IMG/VR virus record: IMGVR_UViG_3300009784_000001 | Coordinates: 295,944-359,943 of that record | Source: a virus | Taxonomy: Duplodnaviria; Heunggongvirae; Uroviricota; Caudoviricetes | Direction: 5' to 3' (one strand) | DNA: 64,000 nucleotides | Shown here: one piece after another, positions 4,217-33,572 of the stretch | Position numbering within the stretch: position 1 is the first letter of the stretch | How the letters are laid out: the number at the start of each line of letters is the position of its first letter | Translations under genes and position numbers: made by a program | The notes under the pieces: generated by a model | Databases searched by the model: none | What the model was told of the DNA's origin: nothing | The model's input: only the letters and a program-made list of their open reading frames with translations

Positions 4217-4338
4217 TCCCCTGTAGCTCAGTTGGTTAGAGTACTTAAAATGAAGTTTTCTGGGTAGGAAATGTTCAGCAATATCAATCAAAATCGCTGT
4301 TAACGAAGGGGTCGGCAGTTCGAGTCTGTCCAGGGGTT
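4217..4338 (+). ncRNA. tRNA-Asn(GTT)-like RNA interrupted by a 48-nt insert (4246-4293)
   Basis: CCCCTG/CAGGGG acceptor stem, D arm, GGCAG-TTCGAGT-CTGTC T arm; removing the insert restores CTTCG-CTGTTAA-CGAAG. Confidence 0.75.
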
Positions 4339-4385: not shown

Positions 4386-4442
4386 AGAAAACATACAGCA
4401 TTTTTTATCAATTCAACCATAGGAAAGAAAAAGTGTTTTCTG
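4386..4442 (+). ncRNA. CAGCA-motif small RNA
   Basis: AGAAAACA-TACAGCA...TGTTTTCT-G; ends nearly identical to 10262..10315. Confidence 0.7.
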
Positions 4443-4668: not shown

Positions 4669-4744
4669 TGGAACTTAGCTCAGCTTGATTTAGAGCATCT
4701 GTTTTACAAGCAGAGGGCCGTGGGTTTAAATCCCCCAGTTCCAA
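4669..4744 (+). tRNA. tRNA-Val(TAC)
   Basis: TGGAACT/AGTTCCA acceptor; TCTGT-TTTACAA-GCAGA. Confidence 0.85.
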
Positions 4745-4753
4745 CAATTAAAT

Positions 4754-4825
4754 CGGGGGATAGAGCAGTGGTAGCTCACCAGGCTCATAACCTGGAGGTC
4801 GAAGGTTCGATCCCTTCTCCCCCAA
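4754..4825 (+). tRNA. tRNA-Met(CAT), C1:A72 mismatch (initiator-like)
   Basis: CCAGG-CTCATAA-CCTGG; canonical T arm. Confidence 0.9.
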
Positions 4826-4829
4826 CAAT

Positions 4830-4958
4830 AGGAAAGGTACAGCAAATTGAATTAAAATTCTATTTACAATTTTACTATGAGGAAGAGAGCTTTCATCTAA
4901 AATAGGTGGAAAACAACTCTCAAAGAAATGAGTACTTCTCTAAAAACTCTCTTTCCTG
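4830..4958 (+). ncRNA. CAGCA-motif small RNA (long variant)
   Basis: AGGAAAG-GTACAGCAA...CTTTCCT-G with internal hairpin TTTCATCTA/TAGGTGGAAA. Confidence 0.6.
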
Positions 4959-5110
4959 ATATCATAAAATAAATCTTTACATCAAGGTGTACATAAATCT
5001 GTATAGTGGTACAAATGAGGGGCAAAGGAGAAGAATTTGCGTAGTCCGCTTGGAGTATCGGGTAGCTATGGTTGGGAAAGGTAAAGATTTATTTTTAATT
5101 TTTATATAAT

Positions 5111-5545
5111 ATGTTATATTCAATATTATTAACATTAGGATTATTAATTTTAGCTCATTTTATTGGAGATTGGAGTAAATTTGTTCCATTTCATCAAAAA
5201 GTAGTTAATGCAAAAGTTAATAAAACCAATACATCTGGAAATTGGATATTTTTACATTCAAGTATTGTATCTCTGTATAAAATATTTGCAATTTTAATTT
5301 CATCTTGGATTATTCCAATAGGAAATATGCCAGGTTTTTTGAATACAATATGGTTTTATATTATTCTTGTAGTAATATTTTTTGGAGAACTAATAACACA
5401 TTTTGTATTTGATATTTCTAAATGGTTTCTAAATAATAAATATAATCTGAATCCATCAAAAGATATTTATTGGACTGTTGTTGGTATTGACCAAATGCTA
5501 CATTATTTAGTAATGTTAGGAATGTTATATTTATTATATTGTTAA
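5111..5545 (+). CDS. DUF3307-like membrane protein
   Basis: AHFIGD, HFVFD, DQMLH motifs; hydrophobic helices. Confidence 0.7.
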   Translation: MLYSILLTLGLLILAHFIGDWSKFVPFHQKVVNAKVNKTNTSGNWIFLHSSIVSLYKIFAILISSWIIPIGNMPGFLNTIWFYIILVVIFFGELITHFVFDISKWFLNNKYNLNPSKDIYWTVVGIDQMLHYLVMLGMLYLLYC

Positions 5546-5553
5546 TTTTATAT

Positions 5554-5639
5554 GGCTATGTGGCGTAATTGGGAGCCGCAGGGGACTTAAAATCCCCTCT
5601 CCTGTAAAGGAGGTACAGGTTCAAGTCCTGTCATAGCTA
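5554..5639 (+). tRNA. tRNA-Leu(TAA)
   Basis: GGGGA-CTTAAAA-TCCCC; long variable arm. Confidence 0.9.
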
Positions 5640-5640
5640 C

Positions 5641-5761
5641 GATGAGAATTAGCTCAGTTGGTAGAGCAAAGGTATTATAAAAAGTTTCTTGAATAAGAAA
5701 TGTTCAGCAATATTTAAAAATGGGAACTTTATGTCAGCAGTTCGAGCCTGCTATTCTCATC
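5641..5761 (+). ncRNA. tRNA-like RNA whose anticodon loop is replaced by a ~55-nt CAGCA-motif insert
   Basis: GATGAGAAT/ATTCTCATC acceptor stem, canonical D arm, AGCAG-TTCGAGC-CTGCT T arm; insert shares GAAATGTTCAGCAATAT with 4217..4338. Confidence 0.75.
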
Positions 5762-5766
5762 CACAT

Positions 5767-5840
5767 TTTCTGGTAGTTCAATTGAATAGAACCTTCGGCT
5801 TCTACCCGAAAAGTTGGGAGTTTGAATCTCCCCCAGAAAG
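5767..5840 (+). tRNA. tRNA-Arg(TCT)
   Basis: TTCGG-CTTCTAC-CCGAA; TTTCTGG/CCAGAAA. Confidence 0.85.
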
Positions 5841-5857
5841 CAAAATAAATAGAAAAA

Positions 5858-6912: not shown

Positions 6913-7179
6913 ATGAAAACATTAAGAGAAAGACAAATTGGTGAAAGATTTAAATATAGAAAAAATATAGTTGAAGTCAAATCTGTTATTTATAACAAAT
7001 GTTTTTATTGTCAATTTAGAAATCAATCTAAATGGATTGTAATTCTAAATGGTTGTTATCAAGAAAAAAATATGTTTGATTCTTGTTCAAAGAAACATAA
7101 TTGTTCAAGATATACCAGAAAGGATAAAAAAGATGTTTATTTCAAACTAGTCAAAAGACTTTATTTAGAAAGAAAATGA
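6913..7179 (+). CDS. hypothetical Cys-rich protein
   Basis: CFYCQF...CSRYTRKDKKDVYF. Confidence 0.6.
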   Translation: MKTLRERQIGERFKYRKNIVEVKSVIYNKCFYCQFRNQSKWIVILNGCYQEKNMFDSCSKKHNCSRYTRKDKKDVYFKLVKRLYLERK

Positions 7180-7739
7180 TAGGTTCAAATAACACTGATA
7201 AGTTTAAGATATTCCAAATAAGATGGGCTGAAAAGTTGGGTTATAACGATAATCCATATTTAATAAGGTGGACATTTATATTTTTTGGATATTCAATGAG
7301 AATACATCATTGGATTAAATCAGATGATAATAGATATTTTCATGATCATTCAAGTGATTTGTTAAGCATTGTATTAAAAGGAAAATATACAAATGTTAAA
7401 CCTCTTATGTGGAAGAAAAATTTACCTCCAACTCATTTATTTGAAGTTGAATTACCACCAGAATCTTCAATAAAGAGAAAGTTTATTTCAAATACTGTAG
7501 AGTATCCAGTTGAAGGTATTTTTAATTCTTGGAAAAATTTCTTCAATATGAAGAAATCAATATGGTTTTCAAAAGCAACTGAACAACATTACTTGAGTAT
7601 TCCAAAAAAAGGTGCATGGACATTGTTATTTGAAGGAAAAGCATATCATAAGTGGGGATTTTATGTAAATCAACATAAATGGAGACCATTAAGATATTTC
7701 TCAAAGTTTGGTATAATACAAACAGAAAATTATCAATAA
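7176..7739 (+). CDS. hypothetical protein, cupin-like HDH motif
   Basis: IHHW..SDD.RYFHDH...WGF. Confidence 0.55.
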   Translation: MIGSNNTDKFKIFQIRWAEKLGYNDNPYLIRWTFIFFGYSMRIHHWIKSDDNRYFHDHSSDLLSIVLKGKYTNVKPLMWKKNLPPTHLFEVELPPESSIKRKFISNTVEYPVEGIFNSWKNFFNMKKSIWFSKATEQHYLSIPKKGAWTLLFEGKAYHKWGFYVNQHKWRPLRYFSKFGIIQTENYQ

Positions 7740-8081
7740 TTTTTAACATAAAAAATTTGGTCATTAAAAATAAAATTTGTATCTTTGCATTATAAATTAT
7801 GTTTTATTGATAGATTCAGGTACTGAATATTGGCACTGTAAAATATAGTTTAGAGTAATAGGCAGTAAGTCATATATCTATGAGTAGAGGGTAACGTTTG
7901 AAATTAGTATATACTCCTTTGAAAAAGTGCAATGACCTATTATTTTTTATTAAATATTGATAATTTTTTAAATAATAGTATATTTATATTAAAAAACTTA
8001 TAAATGGGTATTGAACCATAAATAAAAAGTAAAAACAAAAAAAGCAATGGGAACAGATGCTTAAAAAAAGAAAAAAAAGAA

Positions 8082-8213
8082 ATGAGAGAATTTAGTAAAC
8101 ATATTAATAATTTTGTTGAGGTTAGTTATAAACCCAATAGTAATTGTAATTCAAATGAAAAACCATTTGAAGATGATAATAATTTGCTAAAAGGATTTTG
8201 TGTATATATGTAA
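8082..8213 (+). CDS. leader peptide 1 (43 aa, MREFSKHINNFVEVSYKPNSNCNSNEKPFEDDNNLLKGFCVYM)
   Basis: manual translation; 14 of codons 17-34 are K/P/N/E/D; precedes a terminator and the Glu/Asn/Asp/Pro/Pro/Lys tRNAs. Confidence 0.8.
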   Translation: MREFSKHINNFVEVSYKPNSNCNSNEKPFEDDNNLLKGFCVYM

Positions 8214-8234
8214 CATTTACTCAAATATACGTTC

Positions 8235-8284
8235 CACAAACCCTGATAGCAAAATTAAAAAAGTTATCAGGGTTTTGTGTTTTT
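8235..8284 (+). terminator. attenuator terminator 1
   Basis: CACAAACCCTGATAGC / GTTATCAGGGTTTTGTG plus T run, ending 7 nt before tRNA-Glu. Confidence 0.85.
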
Positions 8285-8291
8285 AATATAT

Positions 8292-8362
8292 GGCGCATTA
8301 GTTTAGTGGTAGAACAGGCGGTTTTCAGCCGAAGGAGAGGGTTTCGATTACCCTATGCGCTA
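8292..8362 (+). tRNA. tRNA-Glu(TTC)
   Basis: CGG-TTTTCAG-CCG (short anticodon stem); GGCGCAT/ATGCGCT. Confidence 0.8.
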
Positions 8363-8369
8363 CAAATAT

Positions 8370-8442
8370 GTACCTGTGGCAGAGTGGTTTATGCACTTGA
8401 CTGTTAATCAAGACTACGAAGGTTCGATCCCTTCTGGGTACG
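8370..8442 (+). tRNA. tRNA-Asn(GTT)
   Basis: CTTGA-CTGTTAA-TCAAG. Confidence 0.9.
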
Positions 8443-8450
8443 CAAAAATA

Positions 8451-8522
8451 GAGAGTATAGCATAATCTGGTAAGTGTGCCTTCCAAGTGGGAAGGAGATG
8501 TGGTTCAAATCCAATACTTTCT
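8451..8522 (+). ncRNA. atypical tRNA-like gene, anticodon undetermined
   Basis: cloverleaf with CCTTC-CAAGTGG-GAAGG (no U33); weak T stem. Confidence 0.6.
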
Positions 8523-8530
8523 GCAAAAAT

Positions 8531-8602
8531 AGTCTATTGGTCCAGCGGTTAGGATGCCAGATTGTCAATCTGGTGGCGAGGGTTCAACTCCCTTATAGAC
8601 TG
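8531..8602 (+). tRNA. tRNA-Asp(GTC)
   Basis: CCAGA-TTGTCAA-TCTGG; G73. Confidence 0.9.
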
Positions 8603-8608
8603 CTATTT

Positions 8609-8681
8609 CTGGGTGTAATTCAGTAGGAAGAATGCTTGGTTTGGGACCAAGATGTCGGGAGTTCGAGCCTCTCTACTCAGA
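8609..8681 (+). tRNA. tRNA-Pro(TGG)
   Basis: CTTGG-TTTGGGA-CCAAG; C1:G72. Confidence 0.9.
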
Positions 8682-8688
8682 CAAAATT

Positions 8689-8764
8689 CGGATAGTAGGG
8701 AAGCTCGGTCGTTCCCGCCTGCCCTGGACGCAGGAGATCATAGGTTCAAATCCTGTTTATCCGA
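8689..8764 (+). tRNA. tRNA-Pro(TGG), variant loop (C33, A37)
   Basis: CCTGC-CCTGGAC-GCAGG; C1:G72. Confidence 0.8.
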
Positions 8765-8901
8765 CTATAATTAAAAAAGTTAAAGGGACTTTGAAAAGAA
8801 TTATAAGTGAAAATAATATGAGTAATAAATTAAAAATAAAACGAAAATGTAGCTGACCTCACAGTTAATATGGGCTGTGAGGTTGGGAATAAGGATATTA
8901 C

Positions 8902-8974
8902 TCCCTCATAGCTCAATGGTTTAGAGCTTCTGTCTTTTAAACAGAAGAACCAGGTCCGATTCCTGGTGGGGGAA
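8902..8974 (+). tRNA. tRNA-Lys(TTT)
   Basis: TCTGT-CTTTTAA-ACAGA. Confidence 0.9.
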
Positions 8975-9210
8975 CTATAAAAATAAAAAAAAATGTTTTG
9001 GGATAACAAAAATAAATGTAAGAAGTATTGTATAGGTTGTAAATTTGCAAGTGAATTTAATAATAATTTTTATTGTGTTAATGAACTTGGTGAATATATT
9101 GTTGCAACAAAAAATCAAGTTTTAGTATCATTGGGATATACAGCTTTACATATATGTAGAGGTTTATTAATAAAGAAAAATTGCCCATTTTTTGAAAAAG
9201 ATAGAAAATT

Positions 9211-9459
9211 ATGAAAGAAATTAGTATTAAAGATGTAATTGATAATAGTAAAAGAGCTAAATTAACTCATGCTATTGCAGGGAGATTGTATTATAGGGTA
9301 GATGATATAGAAAGAAATACTACATATCAATTTTGTGTAGATATGAATGATAAAGAAGATGTTGGTTCAACTACATTTATTGTAGATGAAAAAGCTATTC
9401 TTTTAATGAGATATATTAGAAAATCAAAAGATTCTGGTGATTTAATTCAAATTAAATAG
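9211..9459 (+). CDS. hypothetical protein
   Basis: 82 aa ORF. Confidence 0.65.
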   Translation: MKEISIKDVIDNSKRAKLTHAIAGRLYYRVDDIERNTTYQFCVDMNDKEDVGSTTFIVDEKAILLMRYIRKSKDSGDLIQIK

Positions 9460-9786
9460 CATAATGAGTTTTATTTATGAAATAAAAAATTTAGAGAAAA
9501 TAAAAGAAGAAGGTAGTATTTACATTCAATGCCCATGTTGCCAAGAAAGTTTTGATTATTATCTAGATAAATATGAATTAGATATTTTGAATAAAGAAGA
9601 GGACATTTATTGTAAGTGTATAGAATGTGGTAATTCTTTCTATCTTTCTTTGTAGATTATCAAAAAGTGATAAAAATCATTTTATGTATTGTAAAAGATG
9701 AAAAGAATAAATTTGGTATATTCAATAATAATTTGTACTTTTGCGATATAATTATCTATTTATAGATACAACAAAAAAGTATAAAA

Positions 9787-10122
9787 ATGAAAAAAAGAAT
9801 TATTATTTTATTATCATTATTTTTCATAATGAACATAAGTCAAGCAGCTATTTATAAAACAAAAAGTGAAAGTGATGTAATTGAGAATAGTACAGGTTTA
9901 TTTGGAGAAAAAAAAGTAGAGAAAATTGAAAATACAGAAGATAATTATGGTGGATTATTCAGAGCATCAGATCCAGGTGGAAGACCAGGGAATGGTGATG
10001 GAATTGGTCAGCAAGCACCATTAGGTGATGGATTAAAAATATTACTTATACTTTGTTTTTTCTTTCTTCTTTATGAATTTTCTACAAACAAAAAAATTAA
10101 CATAAAAAATTTGGATAATTAA
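9787..10122 (+). CDS. secreted protein with signal peptide and C-terminal PLGDG-TM-basic tail (PID-CTERM-like)
   Basis: MKKRIIILLSLFF..SQA signal; APLGDGLKILLILCFFFLLY tail. Confidence 0.55.
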   Translation: MKKRIIILLSLFFIMNISQAAIYKTKSESDVIENSTGLFGEKKVEKIENTEDNYGGLFRASDPGGRPGNGDGIGQQAPLGDGLKILLILCFFFLLYEFSTNKKINIKNLDN

Positions 10123-10178
10123 AAAATAAATTGTAATTTTGTAGAGTAATAAGATATTTATAAGATATAAAAATAGAT

Positions 10179-10256
10179 CGTGGTGTGGAGGAGTCTGGCT
10201 TTCCTCATCTGGCTCATAACCAGAATGTCACATGGGTTCAAATCCCATCACCGCAA
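10179..10256 (+). tRNA. tRNA-Met(CAT), C1:A72 mismatch (initiator-like)
   Basis: TCTGG-CTCATAA-CCAGA. Confidence 0.9.
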
Positions 10257-10261
10257 CAAAT

Positions 10262-10315
10262 AGAAAACATACAGCATTTTTTCAATTTTCAATGGGAGAA
10301 AAAAAGTGTTTTCTG
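10262..10315 (+). ncRNA. CAGCA-motif small RNA
   Basis: AGAAAACA-TACAGCA...TTTTC-AATGGGA-GAAAA...TGTTTTCT-G. Confidence 0.7.
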
Positions 10316-10324
10316 AAAAAAATA

Positions 10325-10406
10325 AGGAAAGATACAGCAATGTTAAATGGTTAAAAGAAAATTCTGTAAAAATTTTTTGAAAAGGTTCAAATCCTATTCT
10401 TTCCTG
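10325..10406 (+). ncRNA. CAGCA-motif RNA enclosing a degenerate tRNA-Tyr-like body
   Basis: AGGAAAGA-TACAGCAA..AATGGTT..AAATT-CTGTAAA-AATTT..AGG-TTCAAAT-CCT..TCTTTCCT-G. Confidence 0.7.
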
Positions 10407-10442
10407 TAAATTTGAAAAGTTAAATTAAAAAAAATAGAAAAA

Positions 10443-10553
10443 ATGAAACAAATTAGTAGTACATATTGTCTTGGAAGTTCATCAGCGATTAGTTTTGCTG
10501 GTACAACATCCTTTTGTACTTATCATTTTTATGATAATTTTGTTTCAAGTTAA
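10443..10553 (+). CDS. leader peptide 2 (36 aa, MKQISSTYCLGSSSAISFAGTTSFCTYHFYDNFVSS)
   Basis: 25 of codons 4-30 are S/Y/F/L/C/T/A/I/H, the amino acids of the downstream tRNAs. Confidence 0.85.
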   Translation: MKQISSTYCLGSSSAISFAGTTSFCTYHFYDNFVSS

Positions 10554-10582
10554 AAAAAGAATTACCTTAACCTGGCAAGGAT

Positions 10583-10627
10583 AAACCTGAAACAAATCTA
10601 TAAAAAAGAAAAGTTTCAGGTTTTTTT
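10583..10627 (+). terminator. attenuator terminator 2
   Basis: AAACCTGAAAC / GTTTCAGGTTT plus T run, just before tRNA-Ser. Confidence 0.85.
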
Positions 10628-10636
10628 AATTTATAT

Positions 10637-10721
10637 GGAAAGTAAACCTATAAGGTGTAGGAACCGCCTGCTAAGCGAGTTGTACAATTAAATGTATGTG
10701 AATCGTGTTCACTGCTCTCCG
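10637..10721 (+). tRNA. tRNA-Ser(GCT)
   Basis: CGC-CTGCTAA-GCG; long variable arm; G73. Confidence 0.8.
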
Positions 10722-10762
10722 CAAAAGTTCTTTGAAATTGTTGGTTAATTATAAATTATTAT

Positions 10763-10845
10763 GGATTAGTTGGGTAGTGGCAATCCCAAGACACTGTAAC
10801 TGTCTCGCCTTCGGGCTTTCGCTGGTTCGAGTCCAGCCTAATCCA
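10763..10845 (+). tRNA. tRNA-Tyr(GTA)
   Basis: AGACA-CTGTAAC-TGTCT; variable arm GCC-TTCG-GGC. Confidence 0.9.
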
Positions 10846-10886
10846 CATAAAAATATTTTTCTTAATAACTATACTTTTTTAGTTCG

Positions 10887-11858
10887 ATGCGATATTTATA
10901 TATAAATGTAAATATTATGATAAAGGAACGAGAAGAATTAATTATTAAAATAATAAAAGAGAGTAATAGTATTTCAGAGGTTTGTAAAAAGTTAAATATA
11001 TCTGTTACTAATGGTAATTATATAACAATAAAAAAAATAATAAAAAACAATAATTTAGATATATCTCATTTTAAAAGAGTTTCACAAAATTCTAATAAAA
11101 AGCGATATACGTTACAAGAAATTATGGTTGAAAATTCATCATACACCAATGTAAATAAATTAAAGAAAAGATTAATTAAAGAAGGGATTAAGGAAAATAA
11201 ATGTGAAATATGTGGAATAAGTAAATGGAATGGAGAACAAATTTCTTTACAATTGCATCATAAAAATGGTATCACAAGTGATAATAGAATAGAAAATTTA
11301 CAAGTACTTTGTCCCAATTGTCATTCTCAAACACATAACTATGGTGGGAAAAATATAGATAATAAAATAAGAGAAGATAGATTTTGCAGAATATGTGAGA
11401 AAAAGTTAAACGATACACAAAAAAAGTATTGTTCAATCAATTGCTATAATAAAAGTATTGATGATAATATTCCAACTAAAAACAAAATCTTATCTTATAT
11501 AAAAAATTATACAACACTTGTAGAATTATGTAAAAAAGAAAAAATTGATAGAGGGACATTTAGAAATTGGTGTAATAAAAGACAATGTATAGATGATGTA
11601 AATTTTTTGTTGAAAAAAAATTTTGAAATAAAAATTTTAAATATTGAAGTTAAGAATGATTTATATGAAAAAAGATGTGAATTAATAAATAAATTTAAAA
11701 AATTTGGGTCATTCTTACAAGTAGGTAAATATTATGGAGTATCCGATAATATGATAAGAAAAAGATGTAAAAAAATTGGTTTACCTGTTCATACAAAAGA
11801 AATGATAAAATTAATAAATTCGGAAGAATGTCAGAGTGCTTTATTGTACAACTCTTGA
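10887..11858 (+). CDS. HNH homing endonuclease (start may be 10917); 3' end overlaps tRNA-Ser
   Basis: CEICG...LQLHHKNG..DNRIENLQVLCPNCHSQT. Confidence 0.85.
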   Translation: MRYLYINVNIMIKEREELIIKIIKESNSISEVCKKLNISVTNGNYITIKKIIKNNNLDISHFKRVSQNSNKKRYTLQEIMVENSSYTNVNKLKKRLIKEGIKENKCEICGISKWNGEQISLQLHHKNGITSDNRIENLQVLCPNCHSQTHNYGGKNIDNKIREDRFCRICEKKLNDTQKKYCSINCYNKSIDDNIPTKNKILSYIKNYTTLVELCKKEKIDRGTFRNWCNKRQCIDDVNFLLKKNFEIKILNIEVKNDLYEKRCELINKFKKFGSFLQVGKYYGVSDNMIRKRCKKIGLPVHTKEMIKLINSEECQSALLYNS

Positions 11859-11906
11859 AAAGTTGTGAACTTTCGAGTTCCGTAGGTTGGAATCCTACTT
11901 CTTCCG
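11822..11906 (+). tRNA. tRNA-Ser(TGA)
   Basis: CAACT-CTTGAAA-AGTTG; long variable arm. Confidence 0.85.
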
Positions 11907-11917
11907 CAAGATAATAA

Positions 11918-11990
11918 GGGATAGTAACATAGAAGTTTATGTGCTGGTCTGAAAAACCAGAAATGCTTGAGGCGGTATCAGCCTATCCCA
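11918..11990 (+). tRNA. tRNA-Phe(GAA)
   Basis: CTGGT-CTGAAAA-ACCAG; atypical T loop. Confidence 0.8.
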
Positions 11991-12000
11991 CAAATTAAAT

Positions 12001-12086
12001 GCTTCAATGGGGGAATTGCTAGACCCGCTTGATTTAGGCTCAAGTTTCTGGGAACAGAAGTGTAGGTTGGATTCCTACTTGAAGTA
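12001..12086 (+). tRNA. tRNA-Leu(TAG)
   Basis: CTTGA-TTTAGGC-TCAAG; long variable arm. Confidence 0.85.
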
Positions 12087-12092
12087 CAATAT

Positions 12093-12164
12093 GTTCAGTT
12101 GCCAGAGTGATAATGGGGTAGACTGCAAATCTATTTTTCGTTGGTTTGAATCCAACACTGAATT
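12093..12164 (+). tRNA. tRNA-Cys(GCA)
   Basis: GTAGA-CTGCAAA-TCTAT; U73. Confidence 0.85.
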
Positions 12165-12176
12165 CAAAAAATAAAT

Positions 12177-12247
12177 GCTGTGTTAGTATAAGAGTATTAC
12201 ATTGGCTTTGTAACCCAAAAATGGGGATGCGATTTCCTCACACAGCT
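12177..12247 (+). tRNA. tRNA-Thr(TGT)
   Basis: GCTGTGT/ACACAGC; loop TTTGTAA. Confidence 0.8.
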
Positions 12248-12256
12248 CTAAATTAA

Positions 12257-12328
12257 GGGCTTATCATATAATAGCTATTATGCCACCCCTGCAAGGTGGT
12301 TATTGGAGTGCAATTCTCCATAGGTCCA
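12257..12328 (+). tRNA. tRNA-Ala(TGC)
   Basis: CCACC-CCTGCAA-GGTGG; G3:U70. Confidence 0.85.
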
Positions 12329-12407
12329 CTTATTTAGCATTTATTAACTTGAATAATTTTGATATTAGATAATATTTTCTTATCTTTGTATCATTAAAAT
12401 AAATGGT

Positions 12408-13022
12408 ATGAAAAAGATAGAATTAGTTTATAATAATTTAGATATTAATAATTTACCAGGTGAAATATGGGTAGATGCTTATGATTTTGATGGTTATTAT
12501 GAAGTATCCAATATGGGGAGGATAAAAACTTGTGAAAGAGAAGTCAGTAATGGAGTTGGGACAAGAATAGTAATTAGTAAAATTAGGAAACAGGTTTTAG
12601 GTAAAGATGATAGATTAACTTGTCCCTTTACTATAAATAATGAAAGTATATCTATAAATGTTTCAAGGTTAATCTTTCAATCTTTTAACCCCACTAAGAT
12701 TTTAGATAATTTAGTGGTTTCACATAGAAATAGATGTAAATGTGATAATAGATTGAATAATTTAAAAGTGGAAACATTACAAAACAATCATTTTGATAAT
12801 GTTCATAAGTATAATTATGGCTTAAAAGAACATTTGTTAAAACTGAATAAAATTAAACATGAAAAATTTGTCAATACAATAAAAAGCAAAGTTTGTAATA
12901 AATGTGGAATAGAAAAAGATATAATAGAATTTGTATATAAAAGAGAAGGAAAAAGAGATGAAAATAGAAATATATGTAAAATGTGTAGAAATAAACGTGA
13001 AAGAAATAGAATTAAAAAATGA
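12408..13022 (+). CDS. NUMOD4/HNH homing endonuclease
   Basis: EIW...GYYEVSNMGRIK (NUMOD4); VSHRNRCKCDNRLNNL. Confidence 0.8.
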   Translation: MKKIELVYNNLDINNLPGEIWVDAYDFDGYYEVSNMGRIKTCEREVSNGVGTRIVISKIRKQVLGKDDRLTCPFTINNESISINVSRLIFQSFNPTKILDNLVVSHRNRCKCDNRLNNLKVETLQNNHFDNVHKYNYGLKEHLLKLNKIKHEKFVNTIKSKVCNKCGIEKDIIEFVYKREGKRDENRNICKMCRNKRERNRIKK

Positions 13023-13441
13023 GTTATAAAGATTTTTTTCAAAAACCAGAGTTTGATTTGGATGAAGTAGAAGAAAAAAGAGTAAATGCTTTGAAACCAG
13101 ATGAAAATGGTGATTTAATGGAAAATGGTGATTATATTTTTCAGGATAGAGCAATTCATAATCAACAAGGTAATACAATTCAGCGTTCTTTTACAACTGT
13201 AAAGGGAGTTAGAGTAATGGAAGATACTTACATACCCTGGTCATGCTTTCAACCAATGAGGATGACTTTTGTGGTAGATTTGACATTGCCTGATGATACA
13301 TTACCAACAACTGAAACAAGTTGGATGCAAAATTGGTATGAGCCTGAAGGATTTGCTCATCCTGCATTTGTAAATTTTGAAGATGTTGTTGAATTTATAA
13401 TTAAATGGAGAAAAAGTAACCCTAAAGTGGTTAATAATTAA
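13019..13441 (+). CDS. hypothetical protein
   Basis: 140 aa ORF. Confidence 0.65.
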   Translation: MSYKDFFQKPEFDLDEVEEKRVNALKPDENGDLMENGDYIFQDRAIHNQQGNTIQRSFTTVKGVRVMEDTYIPWSCFQPMRMTFVVDLTLPDDTLPTTETSWMQNWYEPEGFAHPAFVNFEDVVEFIIKWRKSNPKVVNN

Positions 13442-13449
13442 ATAAAAAT

Positions 13450-13522
13450 GTTCAGTTCTTCTAATGGTTTAGGAAGCAAGACTGATATTCTTGTAATATA
13501 AGTTCGATTCTTATACTGAACA
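13450..13522 (+). tRNA. tRNA-Ile(GAT)
   Basis: CAAGA-CTGATAT-TCTTG. Confidence 0.85.
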
Positions 13523-13524
13523 CT

Positions 13525-13602
13525 GTGTGGGTAGCTAATATTGGTTAAGGCACTAGATTGTGGCTCTAGGTTTTTATGGGGGTTCGATTCCCCTCTCACA
13601 CC
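13525..13602 (+). tRNA. tRNA-His(GTG)
   Basis: CTAGA-TTGTGGC-TCTAG; C73. Confidence 0.85.
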
Positions 13603-13667
13603 AAAAATAAGAAAGTTTTGTTATTTAAAAAATTATTCATATCTTTGTATTGTAAATTAAATAAGAT

Positions 13668-14174
13668 ATGAAAAAAATCAGAAAATTTGTATTTGAAACA
13701 AACAGTTCAAGTTCTCATTCTATTACATTAGGTGATTTAGATTCATTTAGAAAAGATAGATATGGATTAAAATCTTGTATAGATGAAAATAACAATCTTG
13801 TATTAAAAGGTGGTGAATTTGGTTGGTATTTAGAAGATGATGAGGGTGCTGAAACAAAAGTAAATTATGTTGCAGTAGCTTTAACTTATTATTATGAAGC
13901 TGCGAAAGACAATGAAGAAAATTATTATGGTTTTACATTAGATGAAATCAATAATATTATTGAATTATTTAAAGAAGTTTTGAGAGAAGAAACAGATGCA
14001 GAAGTTGTTTTCAATTTTAAAGTAGGTTGGGAAGATTCTTACATTGATCATCAATCTATTGATATGATTGCAGATGAAATTAAAGGTAAAAATGATTCAG
14101 AATTGAAAGAATTTTTCTATAATTTCATTTTTAATGAAAATTCAATATTAATAATTGATAATGATAATCATTAA
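13668..14174 (+). CDS. FETNSSS-motif protein 1
   Basis: MKKIRKFVFETNSSSSHS; YIDHQS. Confidence 0.75.
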   Translation: MKKIRKFVFETNSSSSHSITLGDLDSFRKDRYGLKSCIDENNNLVLKGGEFGWYLEDDEGAETKVNYVAVALTYYYEAAKDNEENYYGFTLDEINNIIELFKEVLREETDAEVVFNFKVGWEDSYIDHQSIDMIADEIKGKNDSELKEFFYNFIFNENSILIIDNDNH

Positions 14175-14373
14175 TTATGAATGAAGATAGTGGAGTTAGT
14201 TGTGGATGTGGTTGTTTTTCTTTTAGTATAGGTTGGGGGACTATTATTGCTGTAATATTAAGTTGAATGAAATGGCATTCAATTGGATGGGTAATTATTC
14301 ATGGGTTATTAGGATGGTTATATGTAATATATTATATTGCAAAATATGTGTTATTAAATTAAAAATATATAAT

Positions 14374-14814
14374 ATGAAAAAAATTAGAATTAGTGTTTTT
14401 GAAACGAATAGTTCCAGCACTCATAGTCTTACAATTGTATCAAAAGAAGATTTTGAGAAGTGGAAAAAAGGTGAATTTATTTTTGACAGAAGTAATGATG
14501 AATTAGTTCCTGTTAAAGAGAAGCAATATACAGAAGAAGATTATTTAAATTATCTTAAAGATAAAGCCAAAAAAGTTGCAAATGGATATATTTTTAGAGA
14601 TGTTTATTATAAAAATCTAGATGAAATATTATCATTAAATCTTATTTCTAATGATGAAATGAATGAATATTTAGAAGATGAAGGATATGATTATGATTTT
14701 CAAACTTATAAAGATTGGGAAAATGATGAATATCTTGAAACATTTCAATATTCACATACTACTCCAAGTGGAGATGAAATTGTGGTTTTTGGTAGATATG
14801 GTTATGATGGATAA
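14374..14814 (+). CDS. FETNSSS-motif protein 2 (start corrected from 14233)
   Basis: MKKIRISVFETNSSSTHS matches the N-terminus of the preceding gene. Confidence 0.75.
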   Translation: MKKIRISVFETNSSSTHSLTIVSKEDFEKWKKGEFIFDRSNDELVPVKEKQYTEEDYLNYLKDKAKKVANGYIFRDVYYKNLDEILSLNLISNDEMNEYLEDEGYDYDFQTYKDWENDEYLETFQYSHTTPSGDEIVVFGRYGYDG

Positions 14815-14962
14815 TATATGATTTCGATAATACAACAAAAAAATATAATAAAAGAATTTATTGATTATCTACCTTTTTCTGTTCTAACAAATGAACATTC
14901 TAGGTATAAAAAGGAAATAAGTTTATATGATTATCTTGAAGAATATATTAAAAAATTAAGAG

Positions 14963-15904
14963 ATGGAGATATTGAAATCATACAAAAATGGTAATGTTGA
15001 AATTACATTATATGATAATGGAACGAGGGTAATGGAATATGATGAAACTAAACCATTATTATTTGATTATCCTACATCTATGGATATTAAAATTACTAAT
15101 TATTGTGAAGGCGGAAAGATAACCAAGAATGGTGATTTTAAATTGTGCCAATTTTGTCATGAGGAATCAAATAAAGATGGAAAACATGCTAATTTAATTG
15201 AATTAAGTAATATTTTATTTGATATTCCAGAAGGAGTTGAAATTGCACTAGGTGGAGGTAATCCATTATCACATCCAAATTTAGTTGCTTTTTTATTAAG
15301 ATGTAAAAAACAAGGTTTAATTCCTAATTTAACAGTTAATAAAAATCATCTTGTTTTTTATTATGATTTATTAAAAAATTTAATAGATAATAAATTAATT
15401 TATGGATTAGGCATATCAATTCCTACTTCTGTATGTGAATGGAATGAAAAAGAGTTATTTTTTGTAAATTATAAACATTCAGTTGCTCATTTAATTATAG
15501 GATTGCATTCTACTAAAATAATAAATATTTTAAGAAAGATTGGTTTCAAAAAATTTTTATTATTGGGCTATAAAGAATTTGGAAGAGGTATAAAATATTA
15601 TAATAGTCATTCTAATAAAATAAATGAAAATATTAAAGAATGGGAAAACAATATATTAAATATTCTAACTACTGCTAATGTAATTTCTTTTGATAATTTA
15701 TCTATTAGTCAACTTAATTTACAATCTAAATTGCCTAAGAAATTGTGGGATAAATTTTATCAAGGAGATGATTTTAGTTCAACTTTGTATTTGGATGCTG
15801 TAACTAAACAGTTTGCTCCTACTTCAAGAAGCAATAAAAATGAAAGGGTAAATTGGAAAGATATAAGTTTATTAGATTATTTCAGAGATAATAGAAGAAA
15901 GTAA
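14963..15904 (+). CDS. radical SAM protein
   Basis: DIKITNYC-x13-CQFCHE; EIALGGGNPL. Confidence 0.8.
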   Translation: MEILKSYKNGNVEITLYDNGTRVMEYDETKPLLFDYPTSMDIKITNYCEGGKITKNGDFKLCQFCHEESNKDGKHANLIELSNILFDIPEGVEIALGGGNPLSHPNLVAFLLRCKKQGLIPNLTVNKNHLVFYYDLLKNLIDNKLIYGLGISIPTSVCEWNEKELFFVNYKHSVAHLIIGLHSTKIINILRKIGFKKFLLLGYKEFGRGIKYYNSHSNKINENIKEWENNILNILTTANVISFDNLSISQLNLQSKLPKKLWDKFYQGDDFSSTLYLDAVTKQFAPTSRSNKNERVNWKDISLLDYFRDNRRK

Positions 15905-15931
15905 AAGTTAGATATTTATTATAAAAAAGTA

Positions 15932-16786
15932 ATGAAGAATTTAGATGAAATAAAGTTTTTATTTGAAAGAAAAGAAGAAGAGACTTTTCAAGAATATAGT
16001 GATAGAAAGGAAAAAGAACGAAGTGTATCAAGTAGTTGTAATCATAAGGGGGGGGGGATTCTTAATGAATCTGTTTCAAAAAAAAGTACTTCTGAAAGAC
16101 CAAATTTTATTTCTGAAATAAAAGGTTCAACAACTAATACATGGTCTTTACATAGACTTGATGAGATGACTGTACAAAGATTATTAGGAAAACATTCTAA
16201 TAATGGTTATATAATTATATCAGCAAGTAGAGGAGTGGAAAATGAATGGAATGAACAACAGAAACAAGAACAAAGAAGATTGAATAATGAAAATTATCAA
16301 AAATTATTAGCTTCAATAAAAAATAGTGGCTTTTCTTTTATTCCTGTATATGGTGGATTTGTTGAAAATTTAGGAGAAGAAGATGAAAGACAGGTTTATG
16401 AAAAATCATTTATTGTTTTGAATTTTAATAGAAAAGGAAATGAAATGGATTTTAATGAACTTTATCAAAAAGGTTTAGAATGGACTGAAGAATTTGATCA
16501 AGATTCATTTTTATCAAAGGCTCCTGATTCAACACCAGAATATGTTGATAAAGGAGGAAATGTAACAATGAAGTTTGGTGGGGATATAAAAGTAAATGAT
16601 TTAACTCAACAATATTTCACAGATTTCGTTAAGTCAAAACAATTAGGTCAAGAAACAAATACAAAGGGTGATTCAATGAGTAGAGAACACAGGATTACTT
16701 TTGAAGGAGTATTTATAAATCCTGAACCTGCTACTTTGAGTGAAAGAGTTGTAAGGGATTATTTAAATGAATTATTTTTGAAATAA
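15932..16786 (+). CDS. hypothetical phage protein
   Basis: IISASR...GGFVE...EKSF...FDQDS; TATTTAT motif upstream. Confidence 0.7.
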   Translation: MKNLDEIKFLFERKEEETFQEYSDRKEKERSVSSSCNHKGGGILNESVSKKSTSERPNFISEIKGSTTNTWSLHRLDEMTVQRLLGKHSNNGYIIISASRGVENEWNEQQKQEQRRLNNENYQKLLASIKNSGFSFIPVYGGFVENLGEEDERQVYEKSFIVLNFNRKGNEMDFNELYQKGLEWTEEFDQDSFLSKAPDSTPEYVDKGGNVTMKFGGDIKVNDLTQQYFTDFVKSKQLGQETNTKGDSMSREHRITFEGVFINPEPATLSERVVRDYLNELFLK

Positions 16787-16807
16787 TGTGATATTTATAT
16801 AAATAAA

Positions 16808-16900
16808 ATGAAAAAAAATACAAACATATTATTAGTTGGGCAACAAGGTTGGCAACAATTTGGACAAGGCTGTGGCAATGTTCCTGATAATGGTATGTAA
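16808..16900 (+). CDS. leader peptide 3 (30 aa, MKKNTNILLVGQQGWQQFGQGCGNVPDNGM)
   Basis: 11 of codons 11-23 are G/Q/W; the downstream tRNAs are Gln, Gly, Trp. Confidence 0.85.
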   Translation: MKKNTNILLVGQQGWQQFGQGCGNVPDNGM

Positions 16901-16934
16901 GTATATAAGGATAACCTTCGCAAATGGTGGCTCT

Positions 16935-16971
16935 GGCTTACATTACTATTAAAAGTATGTAAGCCTTTTTT
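16935..16971 (+). terminator. attenuator terminator 3
   Basis: GGCTTACAT / ATGTAAGCC plus TTTTTT, 7 nt before tRNA-Gln. Confidence 0.85.
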
Positions 16972-16978
16972 AATTTAT

Positions 16979-17050
16979 AGATTAGTGGTATAATGGTTAT
17001 TACACATCGCTTTGAACGATGGAATTCCTGTTCAATTCAGGACTAATCTA
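16979..17050 (+). tRNA. tRNA-Gln(TTG)
   Basis: CATCG-CTTTGAA-CGATG. Confidence 0.85.
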
Positions 17051-17164
17051 CATCATATCAATGGCAATAGATATGATAATAGAATAGAAAATTTACAAAT
17101 ACTTTGTCCTAATTGTCATTCTCAAACTGATAGTTATGCAGGAAAAAGTAGTAGAAAAAAATAA
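17051..17164 (+). pseudogene. HNH endonuclease remnant
   Basis: HHINGNRYDNRIENLQILCPNCHSQTDSYAGK with no start codon; close to the core of 10887..11858. Confidence 0.8.
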
Positions 17165-17167
17165 AAT

Positions 17168-17239
17168 GCGTCATTCGTATAGTGCTTATTATGCGACTCT
17201 TCCAAAGTCAGGACATCGGTTGGATTCCGATATGGCGCA
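17168..17239 (+). tRNA. tRNA-Gly(TCC)
   Basis: GACT-CTTCCAA-AGTC; GCG 5' end. Confidence 0.85.
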
Positions 17240-17249
17240 CAAAATATAT

Positions 17250-17320
17250 ACGTGTTTGGTGTAATGGTAGCATAACTCCCTCCAAATGAGTTGGTTAGGG
17301 TTCGAGTCCTTAAATACGTG
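17250..17320 (+). tRNA. tRNA-Trp(CCA)
   Basis: loop CTCCAAA; G73. Confidence 0.85.
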
Positions 17321-17449
17321 CTTACTTTGAAATGTTAAATAATCTAAAATTTTTATATTATCTAATTTATTAACATTTTCTATTTGTATAATAGAAAAAA
17401 TTATCTTATCTTTGTTCCATAATTAATAACAATTTAAATTTTTAATAAT

Positions 17450-32957: not shown

Positions 32958-33572
32958 ATGAGTAGATATATTAAGGAAGAATTGGAGAATTTAATTTTAA
33001 TAGAAAAAAAAAGTTATGAAGAAATTGGTAGATTATATGGAGTTAGTGGGGTAGCAATAAAAAAAGCTGCATATAGAAGAGGAATAGATCTACCTATAAG
33101 GAATAGGCGAACAAAAAATGCTAATGAACATTTTGATAGAGATGTATCATTAAAAAATTATGGAAATTGTAAAAATTGCGGAAAACAATTTATTAAATAT
33201 AAACAAAAGAGAAACGTTTATTGTAGTATTAAATGCCAAAACGAATATATAGGCAAAGAATATATTAAACAATGGAAAAATGGAAATATCAGTGGAAGAG
33301 TTGGTGTTGGCGTGTCTGGGCATATAAAAACTTATTTATTTAAAAAAAATAATAATAAATGTGAAAAATGTGGTTGGGATAAAATTCATCCATTAACTAA
33401 TAAAGTACCATTACAAGTTCATCATATAGATGGTGATTGTACAAATTGTAAAGAAGATAATTTAGAATTGTTATGCCCCAATTGTCATTGTTTAACAGAT
33501 AATTATGGAAATTTGAATAAAAATTCAACAAGGGGTTGTTCCCCAAGATATTTAAAGAAAAATAAAGAATGA
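32958..33572 (+). CDS. HNH homing endonuclease
   Basis: CEKCG..LQVHHIDGD..N...NLELLCPNCH. Confidence 0.85.
   Translation: MSRYIKEELENLILIEKKSYEEIGRLYGVSGVAIKKAAYRRGIDLPIRNRRTKNANEHFDRDVSLKNYGNCKNCGKQFIKYKQKRNVYCSIKCQNEYIGKEYIKQWKNGNISGRVGVGVSGHIKTYLFKKNNNKCEKCGWDKIHPLTNKVPLQVHHIDGDCTNCKEDNLELLCPNCHCLTDNYGNLNKNSTRGCSPRYLKKNKE

Follow-up and report, generated by a model that had tools for sequence, protein, structure and literature searches.

Why would a phage place an intrinsic terminator immediately in front of its own transfer RNA (tRNA) genes, and do so three times over? The question is raised by the 64,000-nucleotide (nt) stretch of IMG/VR record IMGVR_UViG_3300009784_000001 analysed here (positions 295,944 to 359,943; hereafter the window), the last 64 kb of a complete jumbo phage genome of 359,943 bp (26% G+C), which has direct terminal repeats and carries a T4-like Gp23 capsid gene. 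In it, a short open reading frame (ORF), a terminator and a block of tRNA genes follow one another in three units (leaders, terminators and blocks 1 to 3; Table 1). The initial annotation of this DNA had described all three, and each was found where it had been placed, with the first tRNA gene about 6-9 nt behind the U run of the terminator (about 7, 9 and 6-7 nt in units 1, 2 and 3). In the present study, we conclude that each unit is very probably a ribosome-mediated transcription attenuator with tRNA as its output.

The first line of evidence lies in the composition of the leaders. Every leader contains all the amino acids of its own downstream tRNA set; against the phage proteome, the enrichment gave binomial p values of 0.048, 3e-5 and 1e-5 for leaders 1, 2 and 3, and when the 17 amino acids were partitioned at random 200,000 times, no partition matched equally well. 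The alternative reading frames of the leader DNA match the tRNA sets more poorly, and the true match was also better than that of shuffled and permuted controls, a comparison on which the initial annotation had made its proposal depend. Its claim that each leader is enriched for its own tRNA set stands for leaders 2 and 3 and for the partition test, and holds only weakly for leader 1. The start context of the leaders is A-rich, as in other genes of the same phage, the enrichment is in-frame, and the leaders are presumably translated. The matched codons also have a characteristic position: counted from the stop codon, codons 9-28 are matched in 124 of 160 cases against 69 expected, whereas the last eight stand at background (27 of 64, with 27.6 expected).

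Does this composition follow the tRNA genes when these change? The tRNA regions of about 25 phage records were gathered through capsid homologs (57-70% identity), a spacer motif and a protein linked to tRNA arrays, and in 19 distinct records one or more tRNA blocks are headed by a short ORF followed by a terminator; being related phages, they are not fully independent samples. As had been anticipated, leader composition shifts with the tRNA set in distant relatives and is conserved in a close one, the second termite contig L004. When eight set-specific leaders were compared with eight tRNA sets, the true pairing ranked first of 40,320 permutations. One leader of record G004 has a run of Arg, Glu, Gln and Cys codons and precedes Glu, Glu, Arg, Arg, Gln, Gln, suppressor and Cys tRNA genes, and the core of a second G004 leader avoids Lys, Glu, Thr, Gln and Cys, for which its block has no tRNAs. 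Five leaders found later and scored by the unchanged rule gave core p values of 4e-4 to 1.5e-2, three of the five being homologous; in the homologous trio, tRNA-Cys and a leader Cys codon are both present in G006 and both absent from G003 and L150. The Phe codons of the G003 leader predicted a tRNA-Phe behind the terminator, which ARAGORN had missed and Rfam found. Nine leaders precede near-complete arrays; five of them use the full set of 20 amino acids (p 0.003-0.047 each), compared with about 16-17 for protein fragments of matched length. In L004, leader 3 is kept with 23 of 30 codons identical and a terminator with paired changes; since its Gln and Trp genes have different sequences and the decayed Gly(TCC) gene is replaced by an intact Gly(GCC) gene, the tRNA identities have been kept while the genes themselves have changed.

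Homologous leaders differ by insertions and deletions in multiples of three and their peptide sequences are poorly conserved; divergence of the peptide with maintenance of the frame is as expected if codons, not peptides, matter. This bears on another account, in which the leaders encode functional small peptides or mark the ends of transcripts of their own and match the tRNA sets by coincidence, transcription of the tRNAs depending on leak-through, on antitermination of the boxA type or on other promoters. Such an account could draw on the boxA-like motifs that follow tRNAs in each block, on the internal promoter-like motifs of block 2 and, in relatives, on some terminators before tRNAs that come after ordinary small genes. 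It leaves unexplained, however, both the tracking of composition across phages and the loss of enrichment in the last eight codons; the leader peptides match no NCBIfam family, and the gap of 6-9 nt between terminator and tRNA is too small for a promoter. We regard it as very improbable.

The design also occurs in phiCbK (JX100813), a phage with another host phylum and G+C content. Its annotated gp083 (L140:14541-14678) has 41 of 44 residues within the P/T/K/L/H/A/S set of the tRNAs behind the terminator (p 2e-12), and an unannotated 32-codon ORF (L140:16342-16440) forms a second codon-matched leader before a terminator and a Phe/Val/Ile/Gln/Arg block. Neither attenuation nor leaders come up in the paper on the phiCbK genome.

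How could a leader act on the terminator behind it? As the initial annotation had noticed, the last codons of each leader duplicate the 3' arm of the terminator and can pair with its 5' arm. An enriched upstream ORF, an intervening intrinsic terminator and an antiterminator that excludes it, the structural features of a leader-peptide attenuator, are all present in silico. On transcripts ending before the terminator 3' arm, on which the antiterminator folds were computed, the 5' arm is sequestered at 0.67 with a lagging ribosome and at 0.19 with a ribosome at the stop codon (mean of 21 units); 51 ordinary gene terminators gave 0.44 and 0.12 by the same measure (p≈1e-4 versus the leader units). 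A clear switch with ribosome position is predicted at equilibrium in G001, G008, G026, G029 and G030, and terminator stems covary in seven relatives around an invariant 20-nt spacer motif. The first codons of leader 3 are unmatched because they are used in a trp-like 1:2 helix. Taken together, the position of the enrichment and the folding place the sensor codons roughly where a stalled ribosome would leave the antiterminator free.

The 20-nt motif, which has a 4-bp hairpin, lies between leader stop and terminator in L086, L100 and L120-L124 (G001, G008, G025, G026, G027, G029 and G030); in these seven phages the leaders have otherwise diverged, and it is possibly a pause or protein-binding site.

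In the mechanism that we propose, transcription from a promoter would yield a short leader whose codons are a sample of those decoded by the tRNAs behind it. With these tRNAs plentiful and charged, the ribosome would keep pace with the polymerase and cover the last codons, and the terminator would form. With slow decoding, the ribosome would lag in the sensor zone, about nine or more codons before the stop; the freed leader end would capture the terminator 5' arm ahead of synthesis of the 3' arm, and the polymerase would enter the tRNA block. The new tRNAs would relieve the stall, which would amount to negative feedback on tRNA supply in three independent sets. The stall-to-read-through logic put forward in the initial annotation is thus supported by the match, the relatives and the geometry, while the switching is presumed.

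Would the polarity perhaps be the opposite, pyrBI-like one, with a coupled ribosome blocking the terminator as long as it moves fast, and tRNAs therefore made while translation is healthy and shut off upon a stall? Stable-RNA synthesis normally increases with growth, with which this polarity would be consistent, and at equilibrium termination prevails in leaders 1 and 2 at any ribosome position. The distance from stop codon to terminator, however, is 21, 29 and 34 nt in the three units and ranges from 18 to 72 nt in relatives, exceeding the roughly 12 nt that a ribosome covers (PMC4833913). No leader ORF of the window reaches the terminator or brings it within ribosome range, and with spacers of 21-34 nt a ribosome at the stop is too far away to block the terminator directly; the last codons contain the antiterminator strand, so that a ribosome finishing the leader removes the antiterminator instead. 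A pyrBI-like polarity is in our opinion scarcely credible.

With regard to the trigger, the initial annotation had offered both amino-acid starvation and tRNA loss. The latter is favoured: the likeliest natural trigger would be functional tRNA lost during infection, through overload, degradation or host anticodon nucleases, a shortage that additional tRNA genes could remedy, and starvation is the weaker candidate because extra tRNA genes cannot cure an amino-acid shortage. A related view, which overlaps with ours and differs in the trigger alone, holds that these are real attenuators reporting general elongation speed or starvation, not the loss of particular tRNAs. Classic leader attenuators respond to uncharged tRNA, and many relatives have one leader with 17-20 amino acids, as this view would have it, but disjoint sets and the gain and loss of codons together with tRNA genes would only pay if individual sets were limiting; we find a general trigger rather unlikely.

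Several points weigh against attenuation by the leaders. Taken alone, leader 1 is weakly enriched (p≈0.05), chiefly in its second half. The match is incomplete at the codon level, with GGT and GGC in leader 3 and only Gly(TCC) in block 3, and the definition of the core and the block boundaries were fixed by eye after the first data (whole-leader values are also given in Table 1). Chance pairing is substantial in the control terminators, 47% of which reach 0.5. For leaders 1 and 2 the equilibrium probability of the terminator is 0.8-0.9 at every ribosome position, so that switching would have to be kinetic, and a switch with ribosome position appears in them only by the co-transcriptional proxy; for leader 3 it is only partial at equilibrium. 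Coupling of transcription and translation in the host is an assumption of the model. No leader was found before the Val/Met/Leu/Arg block of the window (4669-5841), before the G004 Met/Lys/Leu/Ile/Thr/Asn block, or for G002, G007 and L148; nor was one found for G012. In one termite RNA run there was no contig over the leaders among the matches listed, and contigs cannot show starts or ends. Finally, promoter-like motifs within block 2 could bypass leader 2 for all of its tRNAs except Ser(GCT) and Tyr. The earlier claim that the leaders gate the tRNA operons is narrowed accordingly, Ile and His lying behind an internal promoter-like motif and a TATTTATA at 10893 preceding an HNH gene.

Some of these observations, namely the poor fit of leader 1 to its set and the HNH insertions with promoter-like motifs, together with the degenerate tRNA at 8450, would also fit units that functioned in ancestors and are partly decayed or bypassed here, especially leader 1 and distal block 2. 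Nevertheless, in all three units the frames are open, the set coverage is full and both helices are kept, and leader 3 is conserved in L004; decay or bypass seems to us improbable.

Table 1. Features of the three leader-terminator-tRNA units and their surroundings (positions in the window)
Feature	Position	Strand	Description
Bacteroidota housekeeping-type promoter	7756-7788	+	-33 TTTG and -7 TAnnTTTG upstream of leader 1; putative use
TATTTATA motif	7981-7988	+	Putative phage promoter before leader 1
Leader 1	8082-8213	+	43 codons; enriched in E/N/D/P/K, 20/42 residues; core 18/32
Antiterminator 1	8183-8253	+	Leader end with spacer and terminator 5' arm; -16.1 kcal/mol, z -3.2
Intrinsic terminator 1	8235-8284	+	Stem-loop 8235-8279 and U run; -21.1 kcal/mol; shuffle z -4.5
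tRNA block 1	8292-8975	+	Glu, Asn, degenerate tRNA-like gene (8450-8524), Asp, Pro, Pro, Lys
Bacteroidota-type promoter and TATTTATA	10110-10162	+	Putative; 10110-10141 and 10155-10162, before tRNA-Met and leader 2
tRNA-Met(CAT)	10179-10257	+	Unpaired C1:A72, initiator-like; upstream of leader 2, ungated
Leader 2	10443-10553	+	36 codons; enriched in S/Y/F/L/C/T/A/I/H, 28/35; core 23/25
Antiterminator 2	10539-10596	+	-10.5 kcal/mol
Intrinsic terminator 2	10583-10627	+	Stem-loop 10583-10623 and U run; about -14 kcal/mol; shuffle z -4.05
tRNA block 2	10637-13602	+	Ser(GCT), Tyr, [HNH gene], Ser(TGA), Phe, Leu(TAG), Cys, Thr, Ala, [HNH gene and second ORF], Ile, His
Internal TATTTATA	10893-10900	+	Precedes HNH gene in block 2; possible bypass of leader 2
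Internal Bacteroidota-type promoter	12359-12389	+	Putative; precedes second HNH gene and tRNA-Ile/His
TATTTATA motif	16792-16799	+	Before leader 3; conserved in L004
Leader 3	16808-16900	+	30 codons; central Q/G/W block, 12/29; core 10/19
1:2-type helix	16818-16904	+	Leader 3 start with leader 3 end; -22.2 kcal/mol
Antiterminator 3	16888-16951	+	-15.9 kcal/mol; alone no better than shuffles, z -0.1
Intrinsic terminator 3	16935-16971	+	Stem-loop 16935-16965 and U run; -14.5 kcal/mol; shuffle z -2.47; paired changes in L004
tRNA block 3	16978-17321	+	Gln(TTG), HNH remnant, Gly(TCC), Trp

Standard tools see only part of this arrangement. ARAGORN at default settings misses the Ser(GCT), Phe, Thr, Ala and Gly genes of the blocks, and a stock terminator scan missed terminators 1-3 because their loops are long. 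A scan for a short ORF with an upstream TATTTAT and a terminator returned four cases in 360 kb, two being ordinary gene ends and two leaders 1 and 3; leader 2 is absent because tRNA-Met sits between its promoter and its start. Some leader candidates of the automatic rule were rejected as ordinary small genes or wrong frames, and a promoter pattern of fixed spacing, which was too strict, found nothing in relatives. An ARAGORN call of Thr(AGT) at 8450 was likewise rejected (A at position 33, 32.9 bits in Rfam, Gly(TCC)-like loop sequence), and this tRNA-like gene is probably degenerate or a decoy.

The tRNA regions hold further elements. HNH homing-endonuclease genes and a remnant lie among the tRNA genes (10887-11858 and 12408-13022 by Pfam, 17012-17164 and 32958-33572 by motif), some with promoter-like motifs of their own. 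Modules are inserted in the anticodon arm of tRNA cloverleafs at 4217-4338 and 5643-5759, with a similar insert in G005 (L093:500-620, minus strand), and stand-alone stem elements share a CAGCA motif (4386-4442, 4830-4958, 10262-10315 and 10325-10406), two of them falling between tRNA-Met and leader 2; for these inserts and stems Rfam gave weak tRNA matches and no other family. BoxA-like TCTTTGAAA/ACTTTGAAA motifs follow tRNAs in every block (10727-10737, about 8787 and about 17324) and in relatives too, and might possibly serve rRNA-type antitermination of long tRNA transcripts. The tRNA arrays of relatives contain a Y-RNA-like match (L089:9294-9419, minus strand) and one resembling the hepatitis delta virus ribozyme (L101:4466-4538), both below the gathering score, as well as a match to transfer-messenger RNA (L150:19538-19959). 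tRNAs with a CUA anticodon (amber suppressor-type) occur in several relatives (L092, L088, L096, L120, L121 and L123), and some leaders end in TAG.

Two neighbouring genes may be mentioned here. A 284-residue gene adjoins leader 3 upstream (15932-16786); its homologs carry the Pfam domain S-AdoMet_lyase (PF23780), the window copy does not match the Pfam model itself, and the homology suggests an anti-restriction S-adenosylmethionine (SAM) lyase. Three contigs with SAM-lyase homologs (L005, L142, L143) have neither a tRNA block nor a recognisable leader. A 187-residue protein (7176-7739) matches nothing in Pfam or NCBIfam and has more than 600 homologs, often in or beside the tRNA arrays of related phages.

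Where does this phage live? The sequencing runs that contain the window are termite gut metagenomes, and the entire stretch was found without differences in one independent assembly, possibly the source sample. The host probably belongs to the Bacteroidota, because TTTG stands 19-20 nt upstream of TAnnTTTG in clear excess (35 and 33 counts, against about 5 at most other spacings) and a Shine-Dalgarno-like word precedes only 8 of 209 phage genes; the Bacteroidota promoter consensus consists of TTTG at -33 and TAnnTTTG at -7 (PMC7366714). A search of GenBank phages gave no near relative; for the capsid protein, hits reached only about 40%. Window proteins used as queries for related loci returned little or nothing, and a DNA pattern built from leader 3 had zero matches in IMG/VR.

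Among known systems, the closest in logic are the attenuators of amino-acid operons (trpL, hisL, pheL, leuL, the multivalent thrL and ilvL of ilvGMEDA, and pheM before pheST), which share with the phage units an ORF of regulatory codons, overlapping antiterminator and terminator, and read-through upon a stall; leader 3 has a 1:2 helix like trp and his, leaders 1 and 2 have no clear one. Whereas the classic attenuators control biosynthesis or synthetase genes, the phage units control tRNAs, the product being the sensed molecule; their leaders draw on 3-9 amino acids in the window and on as many as 20 in relatives, where classic leaders use 1-3, and unlike the classic attenuators they are phage-encoded. 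In T-box riboswitches, too, tRNA status sets the choice between terminator and antiterminator, but a T-box responds to a single amino acid by direct binding of uncharged tRNA, independently of translation. A few T-boxes precede tRNA genes in Bacillus and Clostridium; in the window, Rfam gave no T-box match (Stem I specifier loop, antiterminator bulge) at the gathering score or at E<=1. Leader-peptide attenuators are also treated in PMC4833913 and PMC2965389.

Of the controls described for tRNA arrays, the nearest is that of the Anabaena trn operon, a silent array of 26 tRNAs under the TrcR repressor that is activated by translational stress (PMC8421152, PMC10272220). TrcR is a DNA-binding repressor acting at initiation and is not set-specific, in contrast to the translated leader and terminator of the phage units. 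PMC10264068 describes phage tRNAs as replacements after attack by host anticodon nucleases, which would be the likely purpose of the phage units, and tRNA depletion in infection as a recognised host response; it concerns nuclease-resistant tRNA sequences, and a term search returned no passage on the regulation of phage tRNA genes. The open literature, most subscription journals lying outside its coverage, yielded no description of leader-peptide control of tRNA genes. Ribosome-mediated attenuation of phage tRNA arrays would work like the trp, his, thr and ilv attenuators, and would be new in controlling tRNA genes and in the far larger number of amino acids.

The reason why phages carry tRNA genes has been an open question for more than 50 years (PMC10264068). 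With a sensor built into their operons, the tRNAs would prove to be produced on demand when decoding is slow, which fits replacement after depletion better than steady codon compensation. If true, attenuation would no longer be confined to amino-acid genes but would also act as direct feedback on the abundance of tRNAs, its leaders sensing as many as 20 amino acids, and phiCbK, a cultured phage with this layout, offers a ready laboratory model. More broadly, and here we see the chances as evenly balanced, jumbo phages may possess a modular, self-correcting tRNA supply, each block being gated by a leader that monitors the very tRNAs encoded behind it, so that the phage would sense which tRNAs have fallen to a host defence and renew these alone, with leader codons evolving along with the gain and loss of tRNA genes and so recording what the phage monitors.

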